A stretch of 64,000 nucleotides of DNA from Lytechinus pictus. Taxonomy: Eukaryota. The notes beneath the pieces are model-generated. The model was given only the letters and a program-made list of their open reading frames with translations, had not been told where the DNA came from and did no database searches. Positions 9,901 to 63,363 of the stretch are shown in pieces (the first letter of the stretch is position 1; every line of letters begins with the position of its first letter). The position numbers and the translations under genes were made by a program. The stretch is from NCBI RefSeq assembly GCF_037042905.1, contig NC_087250.1, positions 18,974,001 through 19,038,000 of the forward strand, in the 5' to 3' direction.

Positions 9901-12589
9901 CCCGTAAACCAAAGAAGACAGAGTCATCATAAACACTCCGAGTATTAGAATTCATTCATTCATTAATCTATTTATTTATGTACAGACAGTGGTGTAATAA
10001 TGATCGAGCCAAAAAAAAATTGAGAAAAATTGAAGGGGCCATATGGCGCAAGGGCGGAAATCTCTCTCCAAAGGTACATGTAGGGGGACCAGGGGCTGGA
10101 AAATTTGACAAGCAATTAAAAATATATAAAAAGGTTACCACCAACAAAAAGTAAGTTCATCTCGTCCAAAATACATGTTTTATTTCGATTTTGAATGCAT
10201 GTAATAAAACACCAAAAATAGTAGGGGGACATTTGATATTGTGTCCCCCTACTATTGGGTAGGGGGGACACATCCCCCTTGGATATCCACCCATGGCGTG
10301 GCGTAAATTTTTTTTTTAAGTTGAGAGAAAGCGAAGTGAGGGAACAAAAATTGACATTTTATTACAAAAATCCCATTTTTTCAATAGATTTTGACGTCAT
10401 TTTCAGAAAATAATATCATATTTCACCCTTCTCCTTTTTTCCTGGTCGTGAAAAAATTGGAGGGGCAAGAGCCCCCAAGCCCCCTCCCCCCTGTCTGTAC
10501 ATCACTGTTTACAGAAATGAAGAAGAAATTTTCGACATTGGTTTATTCTAATACAATGAAAATGGCCTGTTGTTGGTAGCCTTATACTGACCAAGCAGCT
10601 GACCCCCCACCCCCTGTACAAAGATATTTCTAATATCATGCGAGAGAGCATAGCGACCGAGCAAGAAAAAAATCATATTTTAAAATGCTTGAGAATGTTT
10701 AACCTAAACATGCTTCGGGGTCTGATGGGAGTATGTAGATGAGGGCTTTGATGAGGTTACTTGAGGTAGGACTGCATAAAATGGTTATCAGGAAATGGGT
10801 TTGTATTATTACTCTCTCCAGGCGTTTTTCTCAAAATTTAGAGACTTTGAACGTATGTTTGAAAAAAAAAAAACATCTGAAAGCGCTTGTATACCCTGCA
10901 GGCATACCTTCCTCCAACTAAAAAAAAATGAAAAAAAAGCACACAATCAAATTCTATGATCGAAAAAATGGGGGAGGGGTGGGTCTAGACGTCGCCCCCG
11001 CACTGGGCCTCCGCAATCTTGTCGCCGACCCCTGTCTCTCGGGCGCGCCGTAGCCAGCGAAGCGGAAATGCCTGCCTCCCAGTGTTCGGTCCGTCTTAAG
11101 TTGCCTAGCTGCATCGAAAAATATCATCTGTGATGCGTTGCTATGGAGATCACAATGTGGATAGTTTTGGTTTGAACCAACGAGACAGCTGCCTATATCA
11201 CGTGATATGATTATAGTAAGCGGATAAATATGAAAGTAACTGTGAATATGAATCAAACATTAAATAAAATACAAGTAATATTCCAATAGGCACTTCATAT
11301 TTATCATATTATTCTATTCTACGTGCAACTCTTCTTAGACACTTTAAGACACATGGGAATGAATCAAATCCATAGCGACTTGAGCAATATATCAAAAATA
11401 TATCAAATTGAATTGTTACAGATTCATTATTTTTTTAATCTTAAATGTTTTAGATTCAAATCTTATAGGGGCATAAAACCATGCAGGGACGGGCTTCGTC
11501 CAGCATCAGCTCTCCAATTCACACACTCACACACTTTTTGGGAATAAATGTGAAGTAAAAGTCTAATTAAAGACTACCATTTGATTGTGATAGTTGTTTT
11601 CAAGGTCACCCCGCCCCCTCCCAAAACTTGCGATGGCCCCTGACTGGCCTTATTATCAGGCAAATAATATAATTCGTAGTTCTTATACATTAATTTCAAT
11701 GGATATGTTTGATATCTATTTATTATTATTATCAATTTATGATTATTTTAAACAGCTGTCGGGGTTTGCCTTGCAGTTTTAGCTTTTCATTCTCAATAAT
11801 GGTTGTTTTCAGGGTTTATTAGTTCTAATACATGCACTTGTACACATGTTTCATCTTGGTTTGAGAATTTTTTAAATCGGCTGCTCACAAAGTTAAACAA
11901 TACCTTTAAAGGGTACGGAGGCCTATATTATACTCATGCAGAGACATAAAAAATCACGATTAATTCATCAGAATTTTGCAAAAAAGATCAAACTAAGACT
12001 GATACTTCATGTACACATACCAAACTTTTCTTCATCAACTTATCAAGTACCAAGTTATGCATTGGCGTAGTAAATCCCGGGGGGCGGGGGGATATATCCC
12101 TCCCCCACTTTTTGAAGAAGGGGGGGGGGTGGCGTGTACAAATATCCCCCACACACTTTTTAAGAAAGAAAATATATTTTAATTAATCCGTTGGTAAAAT
12201 CTTTGAATATCTGTATTAAACAACCATCATATTTTAGAATTTCTATTTGAAAATGCGATATTGAAAACCAAAAAAGTTGTTATTTTTGGCTTGCTCGCTT
12301 TGCTCGCTCATATTTTATAATTTCTGTTCGAAAATGCGATTAAAAACTAAAAAAATTGTTACTTTTGGCTCACTTGCTCGCAAAATAAATATTAAAATGT
12401 GTGTAAGTGGGTCTGTGGGGGTCAGTGAGAGTGTGTGCTTATACCTATGTGTGAGATCGACAGAAAATAAAATCGTCAAAAAAGTCAATCATCCCCCCCC
12501 CCCCCTCCTCAGAGTGGATTTACGCCACTGATCTCTCACTTTTACGCCGGTGTCCTTATGAGTCATCGGCTGCTGAAATGTGTGAGGGT

Positions 12590-12772
12590 GTGTGTGTGTG
12601 TGTATTTGAGTTTTGTCAGACGTGTATCAATCAGATATGATTATTTACGTCTGGGACCGACCTTTAACGTCACCATCCGAAAGACGTGACCAGGGATCGA
12701 ACCTCGAATCTCTGCATCAATTTGTAACTTCCCCACATAGCTTGGATTACAGGCGCACGCGGGTACGCCACA
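12590..12772 (-). mobile_element. SINE with 7SL-like head, B-box, Deu/Nin-like motif and (CA)n tail; the 5' tip is displaced to ~14709-14722 by an insertion
   Basis: The minus strand reads gcgtgcgcctgtaatccaagcta...ggttcgatccc...cgtctttcggatggtgacgttaaaggtcggtccc...cacaca. A second copy lies at 18578-18754. Confidence 0.75.
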
Positions 12773-14708
12773 GGGCACACGCGTGTAATTCATCTGCGCG
12801 CAAAGCATGCCGGACAGGCGTAAGTAAAGATCACATGCATTTTATTGATTAAAATAATTCATTAAAAATAGATCAAATGTTTGTATATCAAAAGAAAAAC
12901 GATAGAGATAATGCTATGTTCATACTCTTTCATAATTAAGGCGTTTGGGGAGGCTAGACTGCATTTTTGTATTTCATTTTAATTATTATTACCCACAATG
13001 CAGTTCTGGTTTTCTGGCAATGAACTGGCCGAAATTATGGTTAGTCTTATTTCAGGCCATTTAACTTTTGATTGAGCTGGGCAAGTACCTGATTAACATA
13101 TCAAGTCTTAATGTACTGTTAATTGTGATTAATGTCAGTGAATTAAAGCCAAATATATCGAGGGATTGATTTTTAATGATTTTTTGATGAGCTATGATAT
13201 AACACGTGAGTGAATGGGGGTCTGTAATACTCATGTGTGCCCTATATCGCGACTACACTTCTACACTGTCGTTGCTATGGCTGGGCGTCGTCTGCTAGAA
13301 ATCGGTGGTGAGAAAGCTTCAAACAGTTTTATGCAAAGTGATAGGTTATGTTTAACAACAGTTGATAAGTATGTAACTCGGCATATAGTGCATTTATCGC
13401 TTACGATGCTGAAATGACGCTTTCAAATGTATATTCAATGCTTTTTATCATTTATTATGCAGAAATGCGAGTTTCTACTGCCAATAGGAGATCACGTTGG
13501 TTTGAGAGTGTGAAATGAAATAAGTAGGGATTTCAAAATGATAAATAACTTCTAATTATCATCAGGATTCCTATTTTCAATATTTAGAGCACGCAGAGAA
13601 AGAAAGATGAACAAAACATTAAAATACATAAACTTGTCTCAGTCAGGTGTTATACATCATTGCGCAATTGAATACTATTCACTCCGTTGAAAGCTACAGG
13701 CGGGGGGGGGGGGGTTGGGGGTGGAACTGAGTCGGGGTACATACCCCATCCTCCTGGCTTGTAAGCATGGCGGGGTTGATCCCTATAGCACCCCCCCCCC
13801 ATTCTTCCTCCAAATTAACGGTTATAATGAGGAAGAGAGGCGAAATGAGCAAAAGAAATGCTTACATTCTTTGCTTGCTATCAATTTTCTTTTCTTTACT
13901 TTGTTTATTTTTATGCGAATACAAAGGTAATAAATCACCTCGACCAAAATAAACATGTAAACAAGAAGTTGTAAATCCACACAATACATATTTAGCCCAT
14001 TGATGGACATCAAGCAAGTAGAACTTGTAGCTGCAATACCATAGGAAGCGCACAAAATATATGAATGGAACATTGCATTTTTACATTAAAATGAGGGGTG
14101 TCTAATGAGACGTTTTCTTTTCTTTTAATACGTTTAGTCAGATTAGATATTGAATGCAAGGTATCAATCTCTTCAGGAGAACCCACTCTTTCTTTTGAGA
14201 CCAAAATTTTTGACTTTTTGTCATTTGACCCTCAGTATAGGGCACACGCGTGTAATTCATCTGCGCGCAAAGCATGCCGGACAGGCGTAAGTAAAGATCA
14301 CATGACTTTATTGATTAAAATAATTCATTAAAAATAGATCAAATGTTTGTATATCAAAAGAAAAACGATAGAGATAATGCTATGTTCATACTCTTTCATA
14401 ATTAAGGCGTTTGGGGAGGCTAGACTGCATTTTTGTATTTCATTTTAATTATTATTACCCACAATGCAGTTCTGGTTTTCTGGCAATGAACTGGCCGAAA
14501 TTATGGTTAGTCTTATTTCAGGCCATTTAACTTTTGATTGAGCTGGGCAAGTACCTGATTAACATATCAAGTCTTAATGTACTGTTAATTGTGATTAATG
14601 TCAGTGAATTAAAGCCAAATATATCGAGGGATTGATTTTTAATGATTTTTTGATGAGCTATGATATAACACGTGAGTGAATGGGGGTCTGTAATACTCAT
14701 GTGTGCCC
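12773..14708. mobile_element. Non-coding composite element with ~470-bp terminal direct repeats (12773-13242 and 14240-14708)
   Basis: Each repeat runs GGGCACAC...GTGTGCCC. The outer flanks are both CACA (4-bp TSD) and the inner flanks are both TATA. Confidence 0.85.
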
Positions 14709-15309
14709 CACAACGCCCAGTTGGTCTGGATTACGCCTATAGAGGGAGTCCTTTTCAAAAGCGATTTGTAACATTTTGAAAGATGACCTTGTTTATGGTC
14801 TGTTAAATCTTTGTTAGGTTTTTAAGCCGAGTTAATTGGGCGGTTGGCCTATTCTTCCATGCACTATCATTACAATTAGGTATATAAACTTATTTGCAAC
14901 AATGAATGTGACTTCACCGTCCTTGAGAGTGATCTATTGATTAGAGATTACATACAATTTGTCAAACTAAACTCAAGTTATGCCAGGAATAAGAGATATT
15001 GAATTTGGATACCCGATTGTGATTAGGAAATTTTCGGGGATGGGGGACTCCTTACAGGCTGATGGTTGAAGCGGGGGTGTGCCGGGAAAACCCCAAGATT
15101 ATAAAATAGTGATTGTCATTTTTAATGTTTTTTATCCAAATCCAATTCATTTGGTAGTGAAAACTTTTTTCCTATTTTTTTTAAATTTTATCTCTACTAT
15201 TTGTTAATTTATTTTTGTTTTTAGCAAACTAGCACGCCTCTTTTAAAAATCAATCCCAGCTCCCAGGCACTTTTACTATAGGCAGATAGGCCTAGAAGCA
15301 TCTCGGAAA

Positions 15310-15351
<42 letters not shown>

Positions 15352-15883
15352 GTTAAAACTTTTTAAGTATGGGGAGCCAAGTGTGATGTGTACCGCTAAC
15401 TTTTTATTGAGGACGTGGTATCTTTTTAGGACTTTCAGGTTCAGCAGTCAGGGTGTACGCTTCTTTTGAATTACAAAAACAATTATCTGATTTGTGAATG
15501 ATCGGATCAATCGCAACTCTTTGTGAGACGGGCCCCTGTTCTTCATTGTAAACATCCACTTCACAATATAATAAGTGTTCTTATTTTTGCCTATTCAATT
15601 TTCACTTTCTCTCAGAGCAATTTTCCCTAAGTCATATTAATGTCCCCTTATCACACCTGGAGATTAGTCTGCAGACATAGCCCCTAATCTAAACTTTGGT
15701 CAGCAAGTGGGTTTTCGCACAAGACTAACACATAAGAGGCCTTCACTGATACACAAGTCTTTGCAGGCTGCACATTCTACCCACTTAACTCGAGTAAAGG
15801 GTCTGCACAGCAGACTAGGCCTCTAACAGGAGACGGCTTGATGGAAGTTGCCAGTAAATATGGTGTATTTTCAATTAGTCCAA

Positions 15884-16268
15884 TGCTAATTCGTCCAATT
15901 ACCAACTCATCTACTATCATTGGGTCTACCATCAGTTCGTCCAATATCCACATGGTCTAATTGCCATTTCATCCACTCACCGATTTATCTGATAACCAGT
16001 TGGTCCAATAGCAATTTAGTCTATATACCATTTGGTCTAATTGGGCTATAAGTGTTATTGAGCGAAATGAAGGGGGGGGGGTGAATGGGTGTCAGACGAA
16101 CGGGTTATTAGACGGGATGGTCATAGACGAATTGATTATTGGACCAAATGGTTATTGGACCAATGACTGTTATTTAGATGAAATATTGATGGAAGGAATG
16201 ACATTAGACTGAATGAAAGTACACCAAGTGAAGAGTGGACGATCCGCAATAGACGAATTGGCAATTGG
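15884..16268. mobile_element. Palindromic modular MITE (MULE-like)
   Basis: Inverted arrays of gtcca/gtcta units; ends aattcgtc / gacgaatt. Confidence 0.45.
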
Positions 16269-16490
16269 CGTTAAGATAGCCTGTATTTCGTTGTCATTCT
16301 CTGACCGTTACCAAAGTAACAATCAGAGACCATTGCGTCGATCTCAGCCAATCCAAACCAAATTCACCGAATGGGAAGAACAGACATTCAAATTGTATTC
16401 TAATTACTTTCATGACACCGCACCTCCCTTAAATTCATGATTTTGATTTTTTTTATCAATTACCTAAATAGGTGAAGCGAAGTGTCTTTC

Positions 16491-16783
16491 GGGGCCCTGT
16501 CTTACAAAGAGTTACGATTGATCCGATAAACTTCAGCTATAGGCCTAATATGGAAATTCTTCAATGTCATAATTTCTACTACAGTAGATTTGTACAATGT
16601 CCTTTGTAAATAAAAAGAAGCACACTTGAATTTACAAGAAAACAACGGATGTATATGAATATTGAATATACATAATAATCTGAAAAATATATTTTGAACA
16701 AAGACACATTTTATATGTTTGCATTGCTGGCTTTCCATAGTTGTGGTTGATGGGATCGATCGCAACTCTTTGTAAGACGGGAC
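16491..16783. mobile_element. MITE
   Basis: TIR gtcttacaaagagtt(a/g)cgat / atcgcaactctttgtaagac; a fragment also lies at ~15470-15537. Confidence 0.65.
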
Positions 16784-17081
16784 TACATCTCTATGGACGG
16801 GACCCACGAGTATTTCTTGTAGGATGACGTGGGCCAATCAAAACCAAAGATTGCGCCGAATGGAACAAAGCTGACAATCATATTTTGTGCTAAAACGACC
16901 CCCGGTACATTCTAAAAAAAGGTTTACCCAATATTGGATAAAATGGAAACATGCATGTTTGTTGGGTAAAATGAGACCAAATATTTTGTAAATTTGACGC
17001 AATGAGATTTACCCTTCAAACACGCACTTTGCCTAATATGGAGGGGGAAAAAGTTACCCATTAAACATGCATGTTCCTCTT

Positions 17082-17914
17082 CGCATACATTCGTAATTCC
17101 GAAGCTTCGTTATTCCGAAGGTTCGTTATTCCGAAGGTTCGTATTTCCGAAGGTTCGTAATTCCGACGGTTCGTTAGTCCGAAAACGAAATGAGGTTCGT
17201 AATTCCGAAGGTTCGTAGTCCGAAAACGAAATAAGGTTCGTAATTCCGAAGGTTCGTCAATCCGAAAACGAAATGAGGTTCGTAATTCCGAAGTTTCGTT
17301 AGTCCGAAAACGAAATGATTAACGAACCTTATTCCGTTTTCGGAATAACGAACCTTCGGAACAACGAACCTTAGTTTTTTTTTTGATTAACGAACCTTCG
17401 GAACAACGAACCTTATTTCGTCTTCGGATTAACGAACCTTCGGAACATCGAACCTTATTTCGTTTTCGGGTTATTGAACCTTCGGAATAACGAACCTTCG
17501 GAATAACGCCACAAATGTTCGGATTAACGAACCCTTTTACATTTTTGGATTAACGAACATCGAGGTATAGGCAATTTACGTGTTTTGGAATTACGAACCT
17601 TCGGAATAAAGAACCTTCGGAATAACGAACCTTCGGAACAACGTACCTTATTTTTTTTTGGATTAACGAACCTTTGGAACAACGAACCTTATTTCGTCTT
17701 CGGATTAACGAACCTTCAGAACATCGAACCTTATTTCGTTTTCGGATTATTGAACCTTCGGAATAACGAACCTTCGGAATAACGCCACAAAATGTTCGGA
17801 TTAACGAACCCTTTTACATTTTCGGATTAACGAACATCGAGGTATAGGCAATTTACGTGTTTTGGAATTACGAACCTTCGGAATTACGAACCTTCCGAAA
17901 TACGAGGTGTAACC
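17082..17914. mobile_element. MULE-type modular foldback MITE nested in another MITE (16906-17965)
   Basis: Inverted arrays of ttccgaaggttcg and a 9-bp TSD gttcctctt. Confidence 0.85.
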
Positions 17915-18577
17915 GTTCCTCTTTCACCCAATATTGGGTAAATTTTACTCTCTGTTTTTAGAGTGCCTTATATGAAATGGAACGTGTTTTTTTTTTTTTT
18001 TTTCAGCGGAGGAATGAGGTGGCCTATCTTGAGAACGAACGTGGATGAAGGGGATGGGGTGGATCGAACGGAACAGCCTTAGTGAAGGAGGGCAATTCGG
18101 GAAAGTGGGCAAAAAATACTAAAATCACATATTTCATGTCCTTTGTGAAGCTATCTGGAATGAAAAAAATATAGAGAGAGAGAGCTGGAAATACTAAAGT
18201 TATTGATGGTAATATGGAATTTCAAAATCAATTACTGAATTACTATTTGTTTTTAGCTTATCCATAAAAACAAAGTCTAGAAGGCCTTGACCTTATACAT
18301 TTCCTAAGAATAAATGCTTTTGTACTATGCATTTGGCAGAGAAGAAAGATGATTAAAAAGAGGGGGAAATATTTGCACCAAAAAAAAAAAAAAAAACTAT
18401 ACCACGAAGCATTTTTTTTTCATATAAAAAAGTCATATCCATGAAAGATAATTGGAAAATGAATGAATAATTATCAATTGTCGATGAACTGTACTTTATC
18501 AGAAGAAGACGAAGAAGAAGAAGAAAAAAACAAAGCAATACTATTAAAGGATTGGGGGCAGCTTCTCAATAAGGTTT

Positions 18578-18754
18578 TGTGTGTGTGTGTATTTGAGTTT
18601 TTGTCAGACGTGTATCAATCAGATATGATTATTTACGTCTGGGACCGACCTTTAACGTCACCATCCGAAAGACGTGACCGGGGCTCGAACCTCGAACCTC
18701 TGCATCAATTTGTAACTTCCCCACACAGCTTGGATTACAGGCGCACGCCACAAT
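18578..18754 (-). mobile_element. Second copy of the same SINE, slightly 5'-truncated
   Basis: Only a few substitutions relative to 12590-12760. Confidence 0.75.
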
Positions 18755-26100: not shown

Positions 26101-26205
26101 GTTAAAAGAGGGGAGTTGCTTCTACCCTGTTTGGCGGCCAACGAGTTAAAGGGGAAGTTCACCCTGACAAAAAGTTTATTGAAACAATAACAGAATAAAT
26201 AATGA

Positions 26206-26842
26206 TTGATTGATTGATAAAAATTTAACGACACTATCAACACATGCGTGTCATATAAGTGTCGGACAGTTAATCTGGAAAGGTTACTATAATACAGTAC
26301 AAATTACCCTAATGTAACTTTACAAAGGAACAGGATTATAAATAAGTGATTATCAGCAATAAATTAATATGTTAACTACTTCCCCGGGATAACTTCCCTA
26401 CTCTTTACGAAAAGAGGAGTAGGTTTTTTAACGTGCAAATGGTGTGACTCTCCCTTACACGGGACCGACGGCTTAGAGTCTCCTCCGAAAGACTAGACAA
26501 TTGGAATAAAATACCTTGCCCAAGGGTATACCTGTTGTGATTGGGAATCGAACAGTTTCCCACCTAAAATCTAATAAACAGATTGATCTCCTTTAGGAAA
26601 TTTACAATACATAATCGTGAAATATCTCTAAATAATATCTTAAGGTCAGGAACATCATAAAAGTTAGTACGAATATGTGCAAAATCAGCACATTCAATGA
26701 GGATGTGTTTTACTGTAAGTGTACAATTACATGATATGCATTGAGGTGGATTTTCTCCTGCAAATAAATATGCATGTGTTAAGTGAGAATGTCCAATACG
26801 AGCACGGGTCAATACAATGTCTTCCCGTCGTTTAGCTAATGG
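26206..26842 (-). mobile_element. 5'-truncated second copy of the LINE 3' end (~640 bp)
   Basis: Near-identical to 26843-27480 (ORF2 C-terminus, 3' UTR and tail), with scattered substitutions. Confidence 0.92.
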
Positions 26843-27201
26843 ATTGATTGATTGATAAAAATTTAACGACACTATCAACACATGCGTGTCATATAAGTGT
26901 CGGACGGTTAATCTAGAAAGGTTACTATAATACAGTACAAATTACACCAATGCAACTTTACAAAGGAACAGGATTATAAATTAGTAATTATCAGTAGTAA
27001 ATTAATATGTTAACTACTTCCCCGGGATAACTTCCCTACTCTTTACGAAAAGAGGAGTAGGTTTTTTAACGTGCAAATGGTGTGACTCTCCCTTACACGG
27101 GACCGACGGCTTAGAGTCTCCTCCGAAAGACTAGACAATTGGAATAAAATACCTTGCCCAAGGGTATACCTGTTGTGATTGGGAATCGAACAGTTTCCCA
27201 C

Positions 27202-30200
27202 CTAAAATCTAATAAACAGATTGATCTCCTTTAGGAAATTAACAATACATAGTCGTGAAATATCTCTAAATAATGTCTTAAGGTCAGGAACATCATAAAA
27301 GTTAGTACGAATATGTGCAAAATCAGCACATTCAATGAGGATGTGTTTTACTGTAAGTGTACAATTACATGATATGCATTGAGGTGGATTTTCTCCTGCA
27401 AATAAATATGCATGTGTCAAGTGAGAATGTCCAATACGAGCACGGGTCAATACAATGTCTTCCCGTCGTTTAGCTAATGGAAGAGTATTTTGTGATTCAA
27501 GACTTGGTTGGTGTTGATGGAGTTTATTATTAGGATTTAGATCCCATGATGTTTGCCATTTATTTCTAATATAAGTATTAACCTTTGATTTTAGATCAGT
27601 GTAAGGTATCTGTATTTCTGTTATATCCAGATCTAAAGCTTCTTTAGCTAACTTATCAGCTTTTTCATTACCTTGAATACCTGTATGGCTTGGTATCCAA
27701 ACAAATATTATTCGTTTACCTAGTGTATTGAGTTTATACAGAATTTCCAATAACTGAACAATATAAGGATGTTTATGATTTCTATTTTGTAATGCCGTTA
27801 AAGAAGACAAAGAATCTGTATAAATAACAAAAAGTCTACCGACACAGTTTTCTACAACACCTAAAGCCATTTTCAAAGCTAATAACTCAGCAGTATATAT
27901 GGAAGAACTATCTGGCAATCTAACTTGTCTTTGTATAGGACCACTGATACAAGCCGCACCTACTTTATTCTGGTGTTTTGATCCATCTGTATAGATTGCA
28001 CGATAATTACTATATTTATGTCTTATTTCTCCAAATTTATTTAGGAAAACTAAATCACTTGTAAAACCCTTTTTATATGTTCTTAGTGTAAAATCAATTA
28101 CTGGTTCAGCAATCATCCATGGTGGAATATTAGATATCAAGGAAGGAGCTACGTTAGTAGCATCCAGTATATGTGTTAAAGCTTCTTTAGTACGTAAACC
28201 AAAGGTTTTGATGGCTGATGGTTTACTAGTATAAAAATTAATATATCGTGGCGTGAATGTACAATCATATGTCGGATTATGAGAGTTATTTTTTAACTTT
28301 ATCGCATAGTGTAAAGAGAGTTTTTCGTATCTTAGATGTAAGGGGGGTTCATTAGCCTCCACATAAAGACTCTCCATAGGAGATGTACGAAATGCTCCTA
28401 GACAAAGTCGAAGTCCTTGATTCTGTATGGGTTTCAATTTTTCAAGATATGACTTTCGGGCGGAACTATAAACTGCACTGCCATAATCAAGCTTAGATCT
28501 AACTAAAGATCTATATAAACGGAGAAGGACAATGCGATCAGCACCCCAATCCAATTTGGACACAACCTTCAAAAGATTTAAAGCTTTATGACACTTTTGT
28601 CTTACATAATCAATATGAGCTTTAAAATTGAATTTATTATCAAAGATTAAGCCTAGGTATTTAGTTTGTTGAACTACAGGAATGATAGAGCCATTTATTC
28701 TAACTTTAGGATCTGGATGTACTGATCGTTTAGTACAAAAATGTACACAAACTGTCTTGGTTTTTGAAAAGCGGAAACCATTCTCATCTGCCCACCTTTC
28801 AATTCTATTTAGACAATTTTGTAATACTGTTTCAATGGTCGACATACTTTGTGACGAACAAGAAATACAAAAGTCGTCCACAAACAAGGACTTATCAAAC
28901 CTAGGGTTTACAACGTCAACAATGCTATTGATCTTCAATAAGAACAAAGTAACAGAAAGTATGCTACCTTGAGGAACACCCATTTCCTGATTGTGTAATT
29001 CTGAAAAAGTTGACCCAAGGCGGACTCGAAACACACGATTCGAAAGAAAATTCTGAATGAAAATGGGCAACCTGCCCCTCAACCCAAGATTGAAAAGGTC
29101 TCTCATAATTCCATACTTCCAAGTAGTATCATAGGCCTTTTCAAGATCAAAAAAGACAGATACCACATGGTGACCTCGAATAATGCCATCACGAATGAAA
29201 GATTCAAGTCGAATAAGTTGATCAACAGTGCTTCGATTATGACGAAAACCACTTTGAAACTTTGAAATCAAACCACGCTTCTCCAAGAACCAAACTAATC
29301 GGGCATTAATCATTCTTTCCATGGTTTTACAAAGACAACTAGTCAAAGAGATGGGACGATAATTCGTAGGCTTAGATGTGTCCTTACCAGGTTTCGGAAT
29401 AGGAATAATGATAGCTTCCCGCCACGAATCTGGGAAGTCATCTGTTCTCCAAATTTTGTTAAATATATCTAATAGAACTAAAAGAGATGCTTCTGGTAGA
29501 TGTTTTAAAAATTGATAATGAATTTCATCTGGACCAGTTGCAGTATCATGACATTTACCGAGTGAGTTTTTCAACTCAGAGATAGTAAATGGGTTATTAT
29601 AATCCTTTACATTATTTGATAAAAAATTGAGTTCCTGACTTTCTGCTTGATTTTTATAAATCTGAAATGTAGGAGAGTAATGATTAGATGATGAGTTATG
29701 TTCGAATTCCTCTGCCAGTAAATTAACAATATCTGTCCTTTCTGTACATTTATCACCATCCGATTTAGTTAAATACGATACAGAATTACTCAGATGTTTT
29801 CCACATATTTTCCTCACCATTTCCCACACTTTATTAATGGGAGTATGAATATTCAGTTTAGAAACATAATTTTTCCAAGATTGACGTTTATTTTTCTTGA
29901 TAATATTGCGTGTCTTTGCTCTTGTTTCTCGATATTTTCGCAAATTGTTATTATTTGGGTATTTTTTAAATTTCCTTAAGGCCTTTTTACGACATTTAAC
30001 AGCTTCTTTACATTCAGCATTAAACCAAGGATTATGTTTACGATGAGAAGAACCAGATTTTGGTATCGTATTGGTAGCTATATCAAGTAATGTATGAGAA
30101 AACAAAGCAAGAGGATCCTCTGTATCCTGAAAATTATCATTGTTAATATTTAATGAACACTGATTTGAGAAAGCATCCCAATTTGCTTTGTGAAGTTGCC

Positions 30201-30903
30201 ATTTAGGAACTTTTTCCTCTGGCAAAGGTCTTACAATTTCAATAAGAATAGGGAAGTGATCGCTACCACATTGTTCACTATGGACTTTCCATTGGAAATC
30301 CATAAAAATATTAGGTGAACAAATAGATATATCGATAGCCGTCATGGAACCAGAAGCTGGATGAAGATATGTAGGAGAATCATCATTTAAAAGACATAAA
30401 TCAAAATGTTCAAGCATTAGCTCAACAATATTACCTAATCTATTTGAGTTCTGACAGCCCCAAAGGGAACTGTGAGCATTAAAATCCCCTACTAACAAAA
30501 AAGGTACAGGAAGCTGGTTAACTAGTCTAACTAATTCAGCTTCTGAAAGCTCATGTCTAGGTGGAATATATATGGAACATATTGTAAAAGTGCAGTGGAG
30601 GGTTATCTTAGCTGCAACAGCTTGTAGATTAGTATGAAGTTCAAGAGCTTCATGTGGAACTCCTTTCTTAATCAATATTGATGAACCTCCAATAGGTCTA
30701 CCATCTATCAAAGAAGTACTAGTTTTATTAAACATATCATAACCCCTAAATGAAATATTATCTGAATCTCTCAAAAATGTTTCTTGTAAACACATAACAT
30801 ATGGATTATGATTAATTAAAAGACATTTGATTTCCTCATAATTAGGTTTTACTCCTCGACAGTTCCATTGAACAACGGCTTTTTCCTTCCCATTATAATA
30901 CAT
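27202..30903 (-). CDS. LINE ORF2: APE endonuclease, reverse transcriptase, RNase H and C-terminal zinc finger (1233 aa)
   Basis: QWNCRG, LQET, GDFNAH and SDHFP (APE); DLEKAYD, GVPQGSILS and FVDD (RT); YTDGS, AEL, TDS and HTGIQGNEKAD (RNase H); CISC...H...C. Confidence 0.96.
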   Translation of the reverse strand: MYYNGKEKAVVQWNCRGVKPNYEEIKCLLINHNPYVMCLQETFLRDSDNISFRGYDMFNKTSTSLIDGRPIGGSSILIKKGVPHEALELHTNLQAVAAKITLHCTFTICSIYIPPRHELSEAELVRLVNQLPVPFLLVGDFNAHSSLWGCQNSNRLGNIVELMLEHFDLCLLNDDSPTYLHPASGSMTAIDISICSPNIFMDFQWKVHSEQCGSDHFPILIEIVRPLPEEKVPKWQLHKANWDAFSNQCSLNINNDNFQDTEDPLALFSHTLLDIATNTIPKSGSSHRKHNPWFNAECKEAVKCRKKALRKFKKYPNNNNLRKYRETRAKTRNIIKKNKRQSWKNYVSKLNIHTPINKVWEMVRKICGKHLSNSVSYLTKSDGDKCTERTDIVNLLAEEFEHNSSSNHYSPTFQIYKNQAESQELNFLSNNVKDYNNPFTISELKNSLGKCHDTATGPDEIHYQFLKHLPEASLLVLLDIFNKIWRTDDFPDSWREAIIIPIPKPGKDTSKPTNYRPISLTSCLCKTMERMINARLVWFLEKRGLISKFQSGFRHNRSTVDQLIRLESFIRDGIIRGHHVVSVFFDLEKAYDTTWKYGIMRDLFNLGLRGRLPIFIQNFLSNRVFRVRLGSTFSELHNQEMGVPQGSILSVTLFLLKINSIVDVVNPRFDKSLFVDDFCISCSSQSMSTIETVLQNCLNRIERWADENGFRFSKTKTVCVHFCTKRSVHPDPKVRINGSIIPVVQQTKYLGLIFDNKFNFKAHIDYVRQKCHKALNLLKVVSKLDWGADRIVLLRLYRSLVRSKLDYGSAVYSSARKSYLEKLKPIQNQGLRLCLGAFRTSPMESLYVEANEPPLHLRYEKLSLHYAIKLKNNSHNPTYDCTFTPRYINFYTSKPSAIKTFGLRTKEALTHILDATNVAPSLISNIPPWMIAEPVIDFTLRTYKKGFTSDLVFLNKFGEIRHKYSNYRAIYTDGSKHQNKVGAACISGPIQRQVRLPDSSSIYTAELLALKMALGVVENCVGRLFVIYTDSLSSLTALQNRNHKHPYIVQLLEILYKLNTLGKRIIFVWIPSHTGIQGNEKADKLAKEALDLDITEIQIPYTDLKSKVNTYIRNKWQTSWDLNPNNKLHQHQPSLESQNTLPLAKRREDIVLTRARIGHSHLTHAYLFAGENPPQCISCNCTLTVKHILIECADFAHIRTNFYDVPDLKTLFRDISRLCIVNFLKEINLFIRF

Positions 30904-32187
30904 TTACGTATTATCTAATTTTTGAACCAATTTAATTTTAGAGGAGGGTTGATGAATTGGAGAAATATCCATATCATCATCTCTCTCAATTGATAATACA
31001 TCATATTTATTTTTAGTTACTACTGAGTCAGTTAACTTTGGTTTTGATACATTTATCTGAGGTTTACTTTTCACTTTAGTTGATGGTTTTTTAGTTTCTT
31101 GATTACTTGAAGTATTTCTAGTGGGAGGATCCCGTGAGAGACTTCGACTTCGGCGACCATCCTTAGTCTTAGTCTGCCCCTTCTTCTGTTGATCTTGTTT
31201 TTTAGTTTGAGATTTAGGTTTCTCTGTATTTGTTGCTTTATTATTTTCGAGAGTCACAGGGAAATCACCATTTAACCAAGTTATGTCAGTTTGGGTAGTA
31301 GCTGTAGCCTTAGGCTGTTGAGTTACTTTAGATTGTTGATTAGTTCCTCCAGTACTTTGTTTGGCCTTATCTGCGTATGAACAACTTTGAGTATGTTGTG
31401 TTTGATACAGCTTCCGTGCTTCAGGATAGGATAGGTTACCCAAAGCTTTCAATTCTTGGATTCTTTTCTCCTCGATCCACTTTGGACACGACCGAGAATT
31501 AGCAGGATGACTGCCACCACAGTTAGTACACTTTGATGGAACTTGGCAGGAAGAGCCAGTATGATCATCCTTGCCACAATTCTCACAACACTCATTCAGT
31601 TGACAATAGCTTCTGAAATGGCCAAATTTTTGGCACTTGAAGCATCGAATGGGGTTTGGGATGTAAATATCCACCTTTACTCGCAAATAGCCAACCTTGA
31701 TATATGGAGGAATGGTAGATCTGTTAAAAGTTAGAAACAAGGTATTGGTTGGTTTCTTAATTCCATTCTGATTGACTGTTATTCTATGGACATCGATTAC
31801 TTGCTGATCAGCAAGTTCCTCAAGAATTTCATCATCGTCGCAGTCTCTAAGTTCAGGGCAGCGAACTACACCTTTACACGAGTTTAAGGTCTTATGTGGT
31901 GAGACTTTAATAGGAATATTGACAAATTTGTCGGTCTTGAGTAAATTACTCGCCTGACCAGCTCTCTCGACTTCCACCAGAATATCACCTGATCTTAACC
32001 TTTTGATTGATTTCACAGGTCCAGCTAATGACTCGACACCTTTATTTATAGCAAATGGCGATAGTTTGAGTGGTTTATTTGGATCACTACCCTGAATGAC
32101 CAGAAAACGTGGGAAGTTAACTGGCTCAGTACCATCATTGGAATTACTTCTACTCCGCTTATTGGATTGTTTGTTGAAATTAGCCAT
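30904..32187 (-). CDS. LINE ORF1, gag-like nucleic-acid-binding protein (427 aa)
   Basis: Three zinc knuckles: CFKCQKFGHFRSYC, CENCGKDDHTGSSC and CTNCGGSHPANSRSC. Confidence 0.92.
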   Translation of the reverse strand: MANFNKQSNKRSRSNSNDGTEPVNFPRFLVIQGSDPNKPLKLSPFAINKGVESLAGPVKSIKRLRSGDILVEVERAGQASNLLKTDKFVNIPIKVSPHKTLNSCKGVVRCPELRDCDDDEILEELADQQVIDVHRITVNQNGIKKPTNTLFLTFNRSTIPPYIKVGYLRVKVDIYIPNPIRCFKCQKFGHFRSYCQLNECCENCGKDDHTGSSCQVPSKCTNCGGSHPANSRSCPKWIEEKRIQELKALGNLSYPEARKLYQTQHTQSCSYADKAKQSTGGTNQQSKVTQQPKATATTQTDITWLNGDFPVTLENNKATNTEKPKSQTKKQDQQKKGQTKTKDGRRSRSLSRDPPTRNTSSNQETKKPSTKVKSKPQINVSKPKLTDSVVTKNKYDVLSIERDDDMDISPIHQPSSKIKLVQKLDNT

Positions 32188-35100
32188 ACTACTCTTTTTT
32201 TAATTCAGCACCATTGCTCCCCACCCACCATCGGAGTCCAACAAGGGGACGTCATATATATATATAAGGATAATCACTTATACTGACGCCAGAGATACAG
32301 CAGTGCTATACTCAGAGCAAACCAAAATCCACCCTGATTGACCTGTTTAAGCAGTTGCCTTCTAAGATACTATACCAAAGTAAATTGAAAGTAGTGTCAA
32401 AAGAATCCAAGTTCAAACTATCACATCGCTTGAGATCAAACAGCACAGAACCCAAAAATACACATCGAAGAGACAACAAGAAATAAACCAGTTAAAATAG
32501 CATCTTAGGGCTGAACATCACCAGCCGATTGATTTTAACCAGGCCTATAAAACCTCCCGACTAGGAGAATCCAGGGCCAAAATGACGTGTTGTTTCAGGA
32601 GGACCGCAGTCACACCATCCACTCAATCATCAGGATCCCCTTCTCCCCCAACACGGGTCGCAGTCCACGGCAAACAGACTGTCTCTTTTAGTCGCCTCTT
32701 ACGACATGCAGAGAATACAGCGGGCCTATTCTCTAATCCCCGAACCCGCAGGGGATAGAATAAATAATGAAAACAAAAATATTGAAGGTTTGAGGGAATT
32801 TCATCAAATATTTAAAAAGATATTGGAATTTCATTTGGTGTATTTGTGACGTCAGATGCAAGCAGTTCCCCCATATTTCTTATAGTACAAAAATCAGTGA
32901 AATGTAGCCTCCTAAAAAAAGTGAAAATGTTTTTTTATTGGACCTTCAGTATATCAACAATCAAATCATTTCACACCTGTTCCAGAAAGAAAAAAAAATT
33001 ACCCATGATGAACCATTTATGCATTTTATATCACACAACATAATGGGGCAGCTGCTCGTACAGTATATGACGTCACAAATCAAAAACTTGACATTCTAAT
33101 AACTTTGATGGATCCACCAATATCTTTTTTATATCATGTTTTCTTTTGTTTTTACAACAAACTTTTCTCCGGGGTGAACTCCCCTTTTTAAGGGATAGAG
33201 CAACGTCTGATGTGGCGCTGCTCAGTTGCTGCCGGGCTCACGATCTACATGTAAAGGGTATGGGCAAAATAAATTTTCGGAGCATTTCTGTTACTGAATT
33301 CTATTTTGAACGATAAAATATGTATTATTATCATCCGTCATTAATATTAATTTCATCATCATCATCATACCACTATATAACCATCAGTACTTCAAGTCTG
33401 GAGCAGTTTTCTTCATGTCGATTTGTAATAAAATATTGCAATTATTGGAGCAATATTCCAAAACCAGCAGGCCAAAAACCTGCCTGTATGTCTAAAATGC
33501 AGTGCCTCAAATTATGAAAATGATTTTAATGAATTTTCATGACAGTCGATCCTCTTTAGATTTCAAGATGGTGGCTATTTTGCAGCATATCTATTGGACA
33601 GATTACTGGGTGAATTTTTATTATCTCTTACGTGATACTAGATAAAGTGATTTTTTTTCGATGATCTTTTTTCATGGCAGCCATCTTGCCTTTAAAGATG
33701 GCTGACATTTTCCTTCTGACTCGGGATCAGATCGCTGAGGGCCTACAATTTTTGAAATAAACACCCCGCACTCTGTCGATATGTCAAAGTGCAATACTGC
33801 AGATCATATAAAACTCAAAGAAATAATTTACAGCCTCTCAACAGAAAATGATTGTTCCGGATGGTTATTATTCAACCAAAGCCACTTCAAATGTGTAACT
33901 GCAGAAGAAGCTAGCTGGTTTGTGTATTTATGGTGCTTCATACTTACGTTACATCTATATCAGCAATCAAGGGAGCAAAAGTATTATAATCTTTGCAACG
34001 GACAAAGATGTGGTTTGTGTTGGATTTGTTTTCAGTGCCATTACAATGGGTTTTACTCACCATTATAATGTTGTACACCATTCAAACTTGGTAACCATAT
34101 TGGAGAATTCAAAATAACATCCATTTATTATGTTTTTTTCATTGATCAAGGATGCAAAGATCAAGTTTTTCTCCAAATTCAAAGTGTTACAGGCCATTCG
34201 TAAGACTTGAGCAAATTATCTTTCATGGCGGCCATCTTGGATTTTAAGATGGCGGCGATTTTGACGCTGACCTGGAGGTCAAATTGCTGGGGGCCGGCAA
34301 TATTTGAAATCAGTGCCTCAAAATACCCCTATATGCCAAATTTCAGTGTCACATATCATTTAAAAGTCAAGAAAATTACATTTAATGATTTTTCATGGCG
34401 GCCATCTTGGATTTCAAGATGGCGGCCATTTTGCCGCCGACAAAATGGTCAAATTGCTGGGGGCCGGCAATATTTGAAATCAGTGCCTCAAAATACCCCT
34501 TTATGCCAAATTTCAGTGTCACACGTCATGTAAAACTCAAGAAAAAGACATTTAATGATTTTTCATGGCGGCCATCTTGGATTTCAAAATGGCGTCCGAC
34601 CCGCTGGTCAAATCACTTGGGGCCAGCAATATTTGAAATCCGCACCCCAAATTAAGCCTATATGCTAAATTTCAATACCGCAGTTCATATAAAACTCGAG
34701 AAAATTATTGCAATAATATATCATGGCGGCCATCTTGGATTTCAATATGGCGGCCATTTTGCCGCCGTCCAAATGGTCAAATTGCTGAGCGCCGGCAATA
34801 TTTGAAATCAGTGCCTCAAAATACCCCTATATGCCAAATTTCAGTGTCACATGCCATGTAAAAACTGATTTTTCATGGCGGCCATTTTGGATTTCAAAAT
34901 GGCGACCAACCCGATGGTCAAATCGCTTGGGGCCGGCAATTTTTTTAATCAGCGCCCCAAAATACCCCTGTATGCCAAATTTCACACTTTCTGCCAGATT
35001 CGAGCATCTTTTTCACATATCTACTGGACTACTACCCCTCTTTAATTGAGTTTTCAAAATCAAACACAATTGGAAGATACATTTTTTGGGGACTTTCCCT

Positions 35101-36839: not shown

Positions 36840-36911
36840 GTCTCTGTTGTCTAGTGGTTAAGGCACCGGCGTTCAAAGCTGGGGGCACGGGTTCGATTCC
36901 CGGCAGAGACA
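36840..36911 (+). tRNA. tRNA-like gene or tRNA-derived repeat, anticodon TCA
   Basis: GTCTCTG/CAGAGAC acceptor stem, GTCT/AGGC D stem, CCGGC-GTTCAAA-GCTGG anticodon arm, 4-nt variable loop, ACGGG-TTCGATT-CCCGG T arm (one mismatch), followed by T7. Confidence 0.55.
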
Positions 36912-54934: not shown

Positions 54935-56010
54935 TATTTATTCACAATAACATGTACATATATATACAAACAATAAAAAAAATCAATTCACTTCAATAAT
55001 GCAATAATTTTTTGAATATCACATTTTTTCAAAATTCCGAACTTGCTTTTTTGTTTACATAAACTTTCTAAATAAATAATCATAGTAAGCTTGAATTCAA
55101 TCCATAAAGAATTCGCATCATATCTTTTTCCTTTGAATATGCTTTTTATGTAATTTCGATAAATAACAAATTGAGCAATAACACAAAATAAATTACACAT
55201 AACATTGCTGGAACTTTGCAGATCATAACCTATGATTAATGTTTTTTCATCTATAGAAATAGTAATCTTGAAAATATAAAATACCAACCTTTCTATAATT
55301 TTCCAAAAAAATCGAACATATTTACAATACAGTATGAAATGAAAAGTGGTATCAACTTCTCCGCAAATGTTACATGAGTTGTTTTCTACTACATGCCACT
55401 TAAATAAATTGTCTCTTGAGGGTAAAATCTTGTTCAAAAATTTAAAACTAAATTGTCTAATTCTATTATCCACAATTAAATGCAACTTAAAATAAAATAC
55501 ATGGTTCCAACTAAAGGAAACTGGTAATGAAAAAAGATTAGACCAAAAAGAAACAATGCCTGGTTCTTCCGATACCTCCGAACATAATAAAGAATATATC
55601 TTTCTTGTTGGTAAATAATCTAGAGTTATTTGTTCTCCACTTTTTAATGAAATTAAGATTCGTTCACTTTTTTTTAATTCGAATGGATAATTTTCCTTAA
55701 ACAACTTATTCAACCAATAAACAGGGAAAGACTTTTTTAATTTAGCATATTCTAAATCAAATAAAAGCTGAGAAGAATAGACAGATTTATTTAAAATATT
55801 TGGTGCTAACCACTGACGATTTCTTATAACATCTTTAACCCTAATTATACCTGCATGCTTCCATTTCTTATATACCAACATACGTTTATTAAAAGTAATA
55901 TTGCTGTTATTCCAAATGATTTCATTTTCAATGTTTTTTACTCCAAATATACCAATATATCTTAACTTAGACCAGCTACAAAAAAAATCATGGTAAAAAC
56001 TAGGTATATT
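54935..56010 (-). mobile_element. 5'-truncated L1/Tx1-type LINE fragment (ORF2 C-terminus, ORF 54988-55881)
   Basis: IIWNNSNI..., W..AGI..VKD, FKFLNKILP...L.KW....CNICGEVDTTFHFILYC..V..FW (zf-RVT-like). Confidence 0.8.
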
Positions 56011-56577
56011 TGCTTATGTTATTTTGTAATGAAATAAGATAATAGATGAATAATTCGTCGGGTTTTTTTTAATAAAGAGTTTGATATCAAAATACAGAAA
56101 CAGAAAATGGAGCGAATCGAACGATAAGATATAGATATACAATCCAAAAAGTATATGATCAGTTAATAAATAAATCAGTGTAATTGATTTAAATAAATAA
56201 TAAAGAAACCGTTGAAAAGATTAAATTGGATCCCAGTTGGAGCTAAATTTTAGAAAAATGCGGTTCTAGTTACTCCAATACTTCAATTATTTTTAAAGAA
56301 AATAATCCTTTAATCCTTCCATTATCATCATACTGTAGGACCCATATAACAGAGCATAAAATCCAGTATGTCGTAATTTGAGTAATATTTTAGTACATGT
56401 AGTAATACTAGGACATGCAGAGTATTAGGCCATGTGTGTCTTTCCCTCTCTCCCTTCCTCTCTCTGTCTATCTCTCTCTCACACACACACACACACATTT
56501 TCTCGACCTTGCTCTCTCTCACACACACACACACACATACATTTAATTCTATTTTTTGTCGTGTCTTGTTCACACAG

Positions 56578-60523: not shown

Positions 60524-63007
60524 AGCCCTGGTCACAAGCCGCCGTACGGTTTTTTTGGCCGTACGTTTTTGGGGGGAGGCTACGGTCGCTGCGTTTTTCT
60601 GAAAACGTAAGGAAAAGAGGCGAACGCAGGGAGCAAGTGCATCGACGCACGTCACTCGTACGACTATGCAAGGTGTAAGTACGTAGTGCGTGCGCTGCCC
60701 GCGTGTCACGCCTTGCAGTGAGCGATTGCGTGCAATGTACGTCGCGCACGTGTGGAGTGAGTTGTACCTGCTTACAACGTACGATCTCCGTGCGTTCGAC
60801 ACATTTTGGAATGGAGGCCGTACTTACACGTGCTGCTCACGTACGCCGTCCTTACTTACGCGCAGGTTGCAACTGCATGCACTTGCGATGAACGTAAGCC
60901 CCCCCCCCCATGTGGTGGGGTATATTTATAGAGATTGATCTTCTGACGTCCTTCAAAATGTCGCCTCTTCTACCACAGAGACTCCAAATACTTCTGATAC
61001 TGCAAGAGCAGCTTCAAGTGGCAGGGCATGAGCAAGACGTGGGACCTTTATAAACATCGATAACTTGGACGGCAAATATTACTTGACGTGTTATAAACAA
61101 TGATTTCATTCGCTACTTCTAACTCCTTAATATTGTAATAAAGAATATTGACAGTTTTGAAGCAATCCTTCTTGAATAGAAAAGGTCCATGTACTATTAG
61201 AAAGGTTTGGGCAAAACTAACTGCAATTATAATGCCAATCAAAACTTATATTCTCCATTATGGGGAGGGGGATTGCCTTTCCTTTTAGAAAAAAGAAGGA
61301 ATTGTCTTTACGTGTGATTACACATATTGACTATATATCAATGGTGTAGATACTTTCAATGTTTCAGGAGTCGCCGCGCCTTGGAACCTGGCCTGAAACT
61401 CGCCATCACTCTTCGCTTTTTTGGCAACGGGAAGCAGGTCCCTTGCATATGACTTCCGGGTGGCACACAATAGTATATCCATGTTCGTACCGGAAGTTTG
61501 CACCGCCCTATACGAGGAATATAAGGAGATAGATGCGCACCATGCCCTCTACCCAGGACGAGTGGATCGCTCTTATAAGTGGTTCTGCTCTGTGGTGCTC
61601 ATGGCAATCGTGGATTCTAACTATTCCTTCTTGTGGTGCAATATTGGGGTCAACGGCTCCTCTTCAGATGCAGGCGTGTTCAACCAGTCCACGTTTTGGG
61701 GAGCATTCCGGGAGCACTTGAGGGAACCACCATTGGATTTCCACCACCGGATCCACTGCCAGGTGACGACCAGAATTTTCCTAATTTCCTAGTGGGCGAC
61801 GACGCGTTTCCCCTTCGAAAGTGGCTGATGAAGCCATATTGTCGCCATGCCCTGATACACAAAGAGAGGGTAATGAACTAGCGGACCTCTCGGGCTCGTC
61901 GTGTCGTAGAGAACGGTTTCGGGATATTGGCTCATCGATGGCGATGTCTCTTGACTACCTTGCAGATGGAGCCTAACAACAGAATTTGCGTCCTGTTGGG
62001 TTGTATCATCCTTCACAATTTGCTTCGAAACACCGGCTCGGACAAACTGACGTGAATGTGGACCGTGAGGATGCGGATGGCAAGGTAATCTCCGGGGCCT
62101 GGAGGAATGATGTACAGATGACCGAACCCGACCAGATGGTCGGCCAACGGGCCGCGAGGGAAGGAAAACCCCTAAGGAACTACTTCGCGAACTATTACAG
62201 TTCCCCGCTCGGACGAATACCATGGCAGGATCTCGTTGTGTGAACGCAGGAACTCGTAATAAGCATTATTTCATTTCATAGAAATCTATGAAAAAGAATT
62301 TTTTTTTAATTCTTGTTTTTATTTTATTTGGCGGACTAATACGGTTTCCCACTGTCTTTGTTTGAACTCATGATACACGATTCGATTTCATTTGTTTACA
62401 TTCTACAACCTCTTCAAGCACTCATGATAACAAATTTTGGACATAGTTCATGAAATTCATGTATTATGTAGTGTGTGAATAAATAAGAATAAGGTCATTA
62501 TGTGGAACATGGTAATAAAATATGACTTTGTGTTTTCTTGTTTATATATGAGCACAACGTGCGTTGTAAGTGCTGATCACATGCTTACTCCGCACGTGCA
62601 CGTGAGTTCTTCACGTTCATTTGAATAATTAGATTGGGAAAGTGCCGAGTAAGCACGGGCCACGCAATTATCCGTGCGGCAACGCGCACTTGCTAAGTGC
62701 ACCTTCGGTACAGGAAGTGGCCGCGGCGAATATCTAAAAAGTCTCACGGAGTCGGTGCGTTGTGCGTACTTTGGCAGTACCGAGGGCGTGCGTGCGCGCA
62801 CGTGGGGCAAATCCGTAGCTCGAACGTAGCCTGCACGCAGCGAAAGTTCCTCCTGCACTAAAAGTTCTGCGTCGTGTCTGCGCACTGCCAAATCCGTACC
62901 GAGTCGGTACTCATCACGTGCGTGACGTACGAATTTCCCGATTTTTGCCCACGTTTTCGCACGTAGACTGCGCGCACGTGCAAGTACGACGGGATGTGAA
63001 CACAGCT
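60524..63007 (+). mobile_element. Decayed PIF/Harbinger DNA transposon
   Basis: Imperfect TIRs agccctggtcaca / tgtgaacacagct, flanks GTA/TTA (TWA-type TSD with one change), GC-rich subterminal regions and a transposase remnant. Confidence 0.85.
61364..62243 (+). pseudogene. Harbinger DDE transposase (HARBI1-like) pseudogene
   Basis: LAITLRFLATG; YK.F.SVVLMAIVD...GSSSDAGVF; FLVGDDAFPL..WLMKPY; RARRVVENGFGILA.RWR. Interrupted by frameshifts, a stop and deletions. Confidence 0.88.
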
Positions 63008-63009
63008 TT

Positions 63010-63363
63010 ACTGTCCACCCCCCTAACCACACATGTGACGCACAGAATGTCTTGTATTGCATAATGTGTACCAAATGCCCGGGGGTCACTTACATTGGTG
63101 AAACCAGCACCAAATTTCGCACCAGATTCAATAACCACAAAAGCTCCATCACCAAAAACAAAAAGGACTTTCCAGTGGCCGACCACTTCAACCTCCCTAA
63201 TCACTCTGTCAAAGATATCAAAGTCTGCATCTTCGGCGGAGGATACAGATCGGCAGAGGAACGGAAATGGGCTGAGCTGAGACATATCGTCAAAAGCCGC
63301 ACGTTTGAAAGTGGCCTGAACAAAGATCTGTCTTGGCTCAACGCATTCACATTCTATAGATAA
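63010..63363 (+). pseudogene. Penelope GIY-YIG endonuclease domain fragment
   Basis: VLY...C..C...YIGET...R...H...HF...H...E...GLN motifs. Confidence 0.88.

Follow-up and report, generated by a model that had tools for sequence, protein, structure and literature searches.

A Sea Urchin SINE with a Probable 7SL RNA-Derived Head and a Deu/Nin-Like Body

Two Copies of a Short Interspersed Element in the Window

The stretch of Lytechinus pictus DNA analyzed here (64 kb of contig NC_087250.1, hereafter the window) carries on its minus strand two copies, A and B, of a short interspersed element (SINE) whose head very probably derives from the 5' end of 7SL RNA, the signal-recognition-particle (SRP) RNA. 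The copies are 97% identical over 169 nucleotides (nt) and lie where the original prediction, made from the bare sequence, had placed them (table 1). We number the family from the first nucleotide of the head. Copy A lacks the first 8 nt, and copy B is split after nt 13 by a 1,936-nt insertion (14708-12773) that is bordered by a TGTG duplication; a further 8 additional nt stand at 12768-12761 of copy B. The original prediction had noted such an 8-nt excess in one copy and had joined the two copies, minus the insertion, into a single head. This reconstruction is the true head of the family, because the loose ends of reads and contigs at 18753 begin with the 8 letters of copy B in all four runs aligned.

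Self-comparison and motif searches found no third copy in the window. A 16-nt head motif has two exact matches there (0 mismatches), and relaxing the search to ≤3 mismatches gave no additional site against a chance mean of 0.33. The full element is ~185 nt long, interspersed, and non-tandem, and thus falls within the SINEBase description of a SINE as a short (<1 kb), interspersed, non-tandem repeat (PMC3531059). A B box was also correctly foreseen, with the qualification that the letters quoted for it are those of copy B, copy A having GGTTCGAGCCC.

Table 1. Parts of the two SINE copies and other features of the window
Feature	Position	Strand	Basis or remark
Copy A, whole	18753 to ~18578	-	first 8 nt absent
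Copy A, putative 7SL-derived head, family nt 9-47	18715..18753	-	24/25 identity to 7SL nt 11-35; weak Rfam Metazoa_SRP 1-47; missing 8 nt supplied by loose ends
Copy A, linker and B-box region, family nt 48 to ~90	18668..18714	-	B box 18691-18681; sequence
Copy A, 5' block of Deu/Nin SINE body	18641..18674	-	Deu-alignment motif at 18652-18674
Copy A, 3' stem-loop	18605..18641	-	folding energy against shuffles; candidate recognition signal for a LINE reverse transcriptase
Copy A, (CA)n tail	18578..18590	-	sequence
Copy B, whole	14721 to near 12588	-	interrupted by insertion
Copy B, first 13 nt of head, ending in first TGTG duplication	14709..14721	-	8-letter start same in loose ends of 4/4 runs
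Copy B, second TGTG, 8 extra nt, and remaining putative 7SL-derived head to family nt 47	12727..12772	-	Metazoa_SRP 1-47 sole match, 4227 families, E 0.16
Copy B, B box GGTTCGATCCC	12693..12703	-	sequence
Copy B, Deu/Nin block, 3' stem-loop, and (CA)n tail	12588..12686	-	self-alignment, Deu motif
Later insertion in copy B: two 469-470-nt near-identical elements with GGGCACAC/GTGTGCCC ends around ~1 kb	12773..14708	.	elements at 14708-14240 and 13242-12773; 99.6% identity over 471 nt
I-group LINE	26843..32199	-	intact, two open reading frames; endonuclease, reverse transcriptase, RNase H
Repeat of I-group LINE 3' part	26200..26837
tRNA-like gene	36840..36911	+	Rfam tRNA 50.6 bits
Retroelement fragments with zf-RVT domain and GIY-YIG (Penelope-like) domain	54988..56013 and 62926..63363

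The Head Matches the 5' End of 7SL RNA

Comparisons of several kinds point to 7SL RNA as the source of the head. First, when Rfam covariance models were run on the trimmed heads (4227 families, matches considered to E 10, cut-off matches allowed by the trimming), Metazoa_SRP positions 1-47 were the only match of any family to the copy B head (10.8 bits, E 0.16) and the sole minus-strand match to the copy A head (5.2 bits, E 6.2), both of them weak. The contest between SRP and tRNA models had been named beforehand as one that could refute a 7SL head; it yielded no tRNA family at E ≤10, and Metazoa_SRP alone on the copy B head. Second, a 23-nt head motif retrieved five loci, four from metagenomes and one among prokaryote genome contigs, and all five are 7SL 5' ends of animals other than the host of the SINE. 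The four metagenome loci match Metazoa_SRP from model position 1 (279.6, 270, 94.3, and 41.5 bits), and the fifth, L005, is identical over its first 47 nt to the three loci aligned with it (L001, L003, and L004). Third, the reconstructed head aligns with L004 at a local score of 45 (24/25 nt), which none of 2000 shuffles reached (maximum 26); the best score to L004 elsewhere in the window is 22. SINEBase asks for ≥60% identity to tRNA, 5S, or 7SL RNA over ≥60 nt (PMC3531059); by this measure the alignment of the SINE with L004, a 7SL gene of another animal, is borderline, with 38/62 identical positions (61%), 34 of them within the first 47 columns. Finally, the family start as defined by sequencing reads falls on 7SL nucleotide 1, and the alignment runs ungapped from there through nt 35-36.

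Some observations weigh against this derivation. Both damaged heads score far under the Rfam gathering score of 70, and when the window or copy A was searched in full, neither SRP nor tRNA models found anything at the element. The scores are weak because the first helix strand is lost or scrambled in each copy; an intact 47-nt 7SL end (L003) scores 41.5 bits with the same model. Furthermore, the motif used for retrieval was taken from the SINE, so 23 nt of the match to the retrieved loci are built in. Independently of those loci, however, 25 of the first 30 nt agree by eye with the Rfam Metazoa_SRP consensus, and 28 of 30 with copies of the hagfish element SINE1-1_EBu.

The scans of metagenomes and prokaryote genomes found no additional copy of the SINE and no host 7SL gene, only the 7SL genes of other animals, and four scans of viral contigs with head, body, and S-domain motifs yielded 0 matches each. 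The contig with L005 is filed in a Sarcina metagenome-assembled genome and holds the 5' end of an animal 7SL gene, which indicates host contamination of that assembly.

It might instead be argued that the head is a degenerate tRNA derivative whose likeness to 7SL is fortuitous, resting on the A box common to both and on an anticodon arm like TGTAATCC. Heads of tRNA origin are by far the commonest, all hagfish Deu SINEs listed in PMC7245038 have them, and the B box of the present element has the form of a tRNA T loop. Yet the tRNA models found nothing in copy A, the trimmed heads, or the B-box segment of copy B, and all five loci retrieved by the head motif are 7SL 5' ends. In addition, head nt 1-47 cannot be aligned along their length to the tRNA-like gene of the window, with 837/2000 shuffles scoring as well. 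We therefore regard a tRNA-derived head as close to refuted and highly improbable. The acceptor stem of that tRNA-like gene is closed, and the gene is followed immediately by a T7 run. ARAGORN assigns it the anticodon TCA and the label SeC, but at 72 nt and with a short variable arm it is unlike a true tRNA-Sec; a UGA-reading tRNA and a pseudogene are both candidates.

The Family Is Dispersed and Has a Fixed 5' Start

We checked 24 listed public sequencing runs for sampled words of the element and aligned four of them, three DNA runs and RNA run X24, to window positions 18500-18860. The element was present wholly or partly in 20 of the 24 runs, with at least half of its sampled words in 14, and in two organisms (A and B). 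Runs X15-X20, with labels such as sea urchin and echinoderm metagenome, contained <5 of these words and thus give no more than a hint as to the host. The DNA runs contain 3,217, 3,207, and 3,696 contigs on the element, of which 856-977 cover it only partly. Identity of these contigs to copy A is spread, reaching ≥99% in 607-950 contigs per run and falling <90% in ~500-620. Depth drops to zero beyond a few bases past the ends of the element, except for one contig in run X1. Summed depth over that contig comes to ~16,000, a value that does not represent a copy number and is not used here. The loose ends at 18753 (124 reads; 58, 41, and 68 contigs) share their first 8 letters and then diverge in each of the four runs, which gives the family a fixed 5' start, ACTGGGCG. 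Agreement of sequence beyond this start is 0.45-0.55, and the flanks differ among copies and contigs. Common variants at 18669 and 18703 account for ~70% of depth in organism B and <1% in organism A; such private variants indicate that the family is older than the split of A and B and that it spread afterwards.

In several contigs of run X7 the 5' start of the SINE adjoins a CA/TG stretch that resembles the tail of the element, which suggests either copies arranged head to tail or insertion beside (CA)n.

Amplification of full-length 7SL retrocopies is known from marsupials and the guinea pig (PMC7245038), which raises the question of whether the present sequences are no more than retrocopies or pseudogenes of 7SL, or else Alu contamination from a vertebrate. 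They lack an S domain, both copies and thousands of contigs continue from the head into one common body and tail that are not 7SL, and the family occurs in DNA runs from several studies and from two organisms. This shared composite structure refutes either explanation, and we give them practically no weight. We regard as shown that the element is composite and dispersed, that its fixed start coincides with 7SL nucleotide 1, and that base pairs are kept in the head (see below).

The 7SL-Derived Part Probably Ends near Nucleotide 47

To judge by these alignments, the 7SL-derived part is probably confined to ~47 nt. The match stops at the 3' strand of helix 2, which is the boundary of the 46-nt domain discussed below. 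From nt 48 onward the element aligns with L004 no better than 1731/2000 of its shuffles, and neither nt 48-172 nor nt 48-95 resembles the 3' part of 7SL (nt 250-299), with 156/1000 and 575/1000 shuffles as good, respectively. Thus, no S domain, helix 5, or 3' Alu strand is detectable past ~nt 47 in comparison with L004. This end point, which was absent from the original prediction, is what sets the element apart.

A longer 7SL fragment of ~86 nt joined to a Deu body, in which nt 48-86 and the B box descend from helix 5 of the host 7SL and the B box was improved by point changes as in Alu, is in our view rather unlikely. The distance from A box to B box (nt 5 to 71) is near that of human 7SL (6 to 76; PMC7245038), MAFFT places nt 48-86 on 7SL almost without gaps, and 57/93 columns match over the first 90 nt. 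Taken alone, however, nt 48-90 align with 7SL no better than shuffles do (385/1000 as good, and 348/1000 in a second test). The B box with the following TCAC resembles a B-box-like motif in the 3' untranslated region (UTR) of a long interspersed element (LINE) of the window (13/17), although the alignment score rises by a mere 3.8 points through it. One consideration does tell against an end at nt 47: since the 7SL genes compared come from other animals, nt 48-86 could be a diverged helix 5 of the host's own 7SL.

The Alu-Domain Fold Is Largely Retained

Nucleotides 1-47 correspond to the 5' Alu domain, and most of the pairing of that domain is kept. Helix 2 retains all three of its pairs, two of which are changed on both sides; helix 3 retains six of seven and helix 4 three of three. 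The loop-loop contacts comprise two Watson-Crick pairs and one G-T, and the UGUAA motif is retained in the head alongside the base pairs. At the G-T site the 7SL letter is present in organism B in 12,834/16,970 of depth (18725 A>G). Many copies in organism A (57 and 63 contigs) have a head shortened by 2 nt in loop 4, which gives it the length found in L004.

We consider the chances about even that binding of SRP9/14 by the folded head, posited by analogy with Alu, aids the spread of the family. The double changes in helix 2 argue for selection less than they might: they require a register shift of 2 nt, their probability by chance is ~0.07, and they may simply have come from the host 7SL, with no selection on the SINE behind them.

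The 7SL piece may alternatively have served as a donor of the A box or been a passenger, with the family spreading through its 3' hairpin and tail and SRP9/14 playing no role. We find this unlikely, albeit with more in its favor than the longer 7SL fragment has. With a LINE-type 3' hairpin, the element would not depend on competing through poly(A) in the manner of Alu; helix 3 has one broken pair, and loop 4 is variable in many copies. Moreover, depth in organism B over the 3' part is several times that over the head, for which clipping at the variable loop partly accounts. On the other hand, an A box requires only ~15 nt, whereas the 7SL match extends to the boundary of the 46-nt domain, and the hagfish SINE with a LINE-derived tail still retains the Alu fold (PMC7245038).

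Body, Tail, and Candidate Partner LINE

The original prediction had placed a Deu/Nin-like core behind the B box. The published Deu-alignment motif matches both copies and none of 100 shuffles, but only the first ~35 of the ~140 nt of the domain are present (by eye, against the published alignment); its 3' two thirds are absent, and the element terminates ~60 nt past the block. The 3' hairpin has a folding energy of -12.6 kcal/mol against a shuffle mean of -4.6, with 2/500 shuffles as low, and it is followed in both copies by the (CA)n tail that had been anticipated. Neither of the two copies is flanked by a target-site duplication (TSD). Absent TSDs together with microsatellite tails are linked to CR1/L2 partners. 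No partner LINE was found within the window (692/1000 shuffles match as well), which weighs against the mechanism proposed below.

The I-group LINE of the window is intact (table 1) and was tried as the partner. It was rejected, as its 3' end does not match that of the SINE and terminates in (ATCA)n. Its 3' UTR contains the B-box-like motif mentioned above and then, by eye, a nearly full Deu/Nin SINE domain before the (ATCA)n end. The Deu block of copy A aligns with this Deu-like block, with 0/2000 shuffles as good. A LINE with a SINE body in its UTR bears on the origin of such bodies.

Transcription

A and B boxes are present in the element, and TTTT does not occur inside it; the nearest such run lies 48 nt downstream of one copy and 107 nt downstream of the other. 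RNA run X24 yielded 2,115 SINE reads from 12.9 million records, on both strands about equally. These reads lend little to the idea of unit-length RNA polymerase III products: they have no shared start or end, and a fraction of 0.79 continue into unlike sequence, which fits copies lying inside longer transcripts. A 7-nt direct repeat stands at the B box (18684-18697), one unit of which is absent in 341/1,133 RNA reads compared with <1% of DNA contig depth.

Proposed Origin and Mechanism

We think it likely that the element is a chimera in which the 46-nt minimal Alu module was joined to a B box borrowed from elsewhere, followed by a body of Deu/Nin type, a 3' hairpin, and (CA)n. It would have arisen a single time, from a tRNA-headed Deu SINE that through template switching or recombination exchanged its 5' part for a 5' fragment of 7SL and kept its B box, body, and tail. 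We favor such a parent because the Deu block directly follows the B box, as in SINE2-7_EBu, and because the Deu-like block of the LINE 3' UTR has a similar B-box-like motif upstream, small as the gain in score is. Against it stand the B-box segment, which matches no tRNA model, and the absence of a tRNA-headed parent among the 24 of 767 loose-end rows inspected. The linker and B-box region matches only the T loop of the tRNA-like gene of the window, with 54/2000 shuffles as good.

Under this hypothesis RNA polymerase III would read the SINE from the hybrid A and B boxes, with termination at the first T run downstream. Its 47-nt module would then fold, bind SRP9/14, and park the RNA on ribosomes, by analogy with the constructs of PMC12199147. 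The 3' hairpin and tail might there capture the reverse transcriptase (RT) of a LINE. Given that neither copy has a TSD, the partner is probably CR1/L2-like.

The Insertion in Copy B

This insertion is arranged as TGTG-M-TATA-~1 kb-TATA-M-TGTG, in which M is an element of ~470 nt in direct orientation. With its matching outer and inner 4-bp duplications it looks like a cointegrate or composite DNA transposon insertion, and we take its ends and 4-bp TSD to be reminiscent of Sola2. The 8 additional nt of copy B, which repeat GCGT beside the insertion, may be a footprint.

Comparison with Known SINEs

The nearest counterpart is the hagfish SINE1-1_EBu (Ebu1-1), which has a 7SL-derived head (Kojima 2020, PMC7245038). 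As in the urchin element, that head, similar over its first 30 nt as noted, is grafted on an older SINE backbone and a microsatellite forms the tail. However, SINE1-1_EBu comprises 96 nt of the 7SL 5' end together with the 7SL 3' end, that is, the whole Alu domain, and has a bipartite RTE tail, (AAC)n, and TSDs of ~17 bp (PMC7245038), whereas in the urchin SINE the 7SL portion covers ~47 nt and lacks a 3' strand, a Deu block and (CA)n are present, and neither of the two copies shows a TSD. With Alu, B1, and Tu of supraprimates and Urop of the shrew mole it shares the fold of the 5' Alu domain and the 7SL-type A box (PMC13023118). Those families consist of 7SL with a central deletion of ~183 nt, keep both strands of the Alu domain, and use poly(A) and L1 (PMC13023118); the urchin SINE, unlike them, has no 3' part of 7SL and no poly(A). 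Its Deu 5' block stands straight after the B box as in the Deu/Nin SINEs AmnSINE1, EbuSINE1/2, and SINE2-7_EBu (PMC7245038, supplement). Head swapping is known among Deu/Nin SINEs, for example with a 5S rRNA head (PMC4758252, PMC5786205), but the urchin element differs from them in having ~35 of ~140 nt of the domain and a 7SL head rather than one from tRNA or 5S.

In Kojima 2020, Kojima 2024, and Kosushkin et al. 2026, 7SL SINEs are listed only for supraprimates, hagfish, and the shrew mole. The original prediction had named Euarchontoglires and hagfish, which stand, and had omitted Urop of the shrew mole (2026). All 7SL SINEs share a similar central deletion, according to Kosushkin et al. 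2026, and the known ones thus retain the 7SL 3' end. As it lacks a 7SL 3' strand around a central deletion, the urchin SINE falls outside the structural type of Alu, Ebu, and Urop. By analogy it probably works as those SINEs do. Searches of the open literature up to 2026 listed no report of a 7SL SINE in an invertebrate; subscription journals, Repbase, Dfam, and SINEBase were beyond the scope of that survey, and there is a minor but appreciable chance that the family is already recorded in such sources, labelled as a tRNA or Alu element. Only tentatively, and on balance with somewhat more doubt than confidence, do we suggest that 7SL-headed SINEs here appear for the first time in an invertebrate, that such heads thereby originated independently a fourth time, and that this is the first family in nature with the 46-nt module alone, in which a B box was borrowed as promoter and SRP9/14 would be used to reach the ribosome-bound RT of a non-L1 LINE. 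A sea urchin family of this kind would extend the origin of 7SL SINEs to invertebrates and break the rule that both halves of the Alu domain are present.

Moldovan et al. 2025 (PMC12199147) report that SRP9/14 is bound by a 46-nt 5' Alu domain, and that in HeLa cells this domain is enough for retrotransposition at ~86% of the level of Alu. Those authors also suggest that a truncation like their SA46 failed in evolution for want of an internal promoter, the B box. The urchin SINE has the same 46-nt domain at its RNA 5' end as the SA46/AY46 constructs; SA46, however, requires an outside promoter, whereas the urchin element has a downstream B box and has spread. We take it to be a young chimeric 7SL-headed SINE with the head reduced to the minimal Alu module, and from its sequence it looks like the exception to the predicted failure, having gained an internal promoter. 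The family would offer a natural experiment on a stated prediction, namely that the 46-nt module mobilizes yet should fail in evolution when it has no B box. If the more tentative reading given above is correct, docking through SRP9/14 would be a general aid to retrotransposition across deuterostomes. With many copies, two related organisms, and injectable embryos, the role of SRP9/14 in the success of SINEs becomes testable outside the setting of L1 and poly(A).

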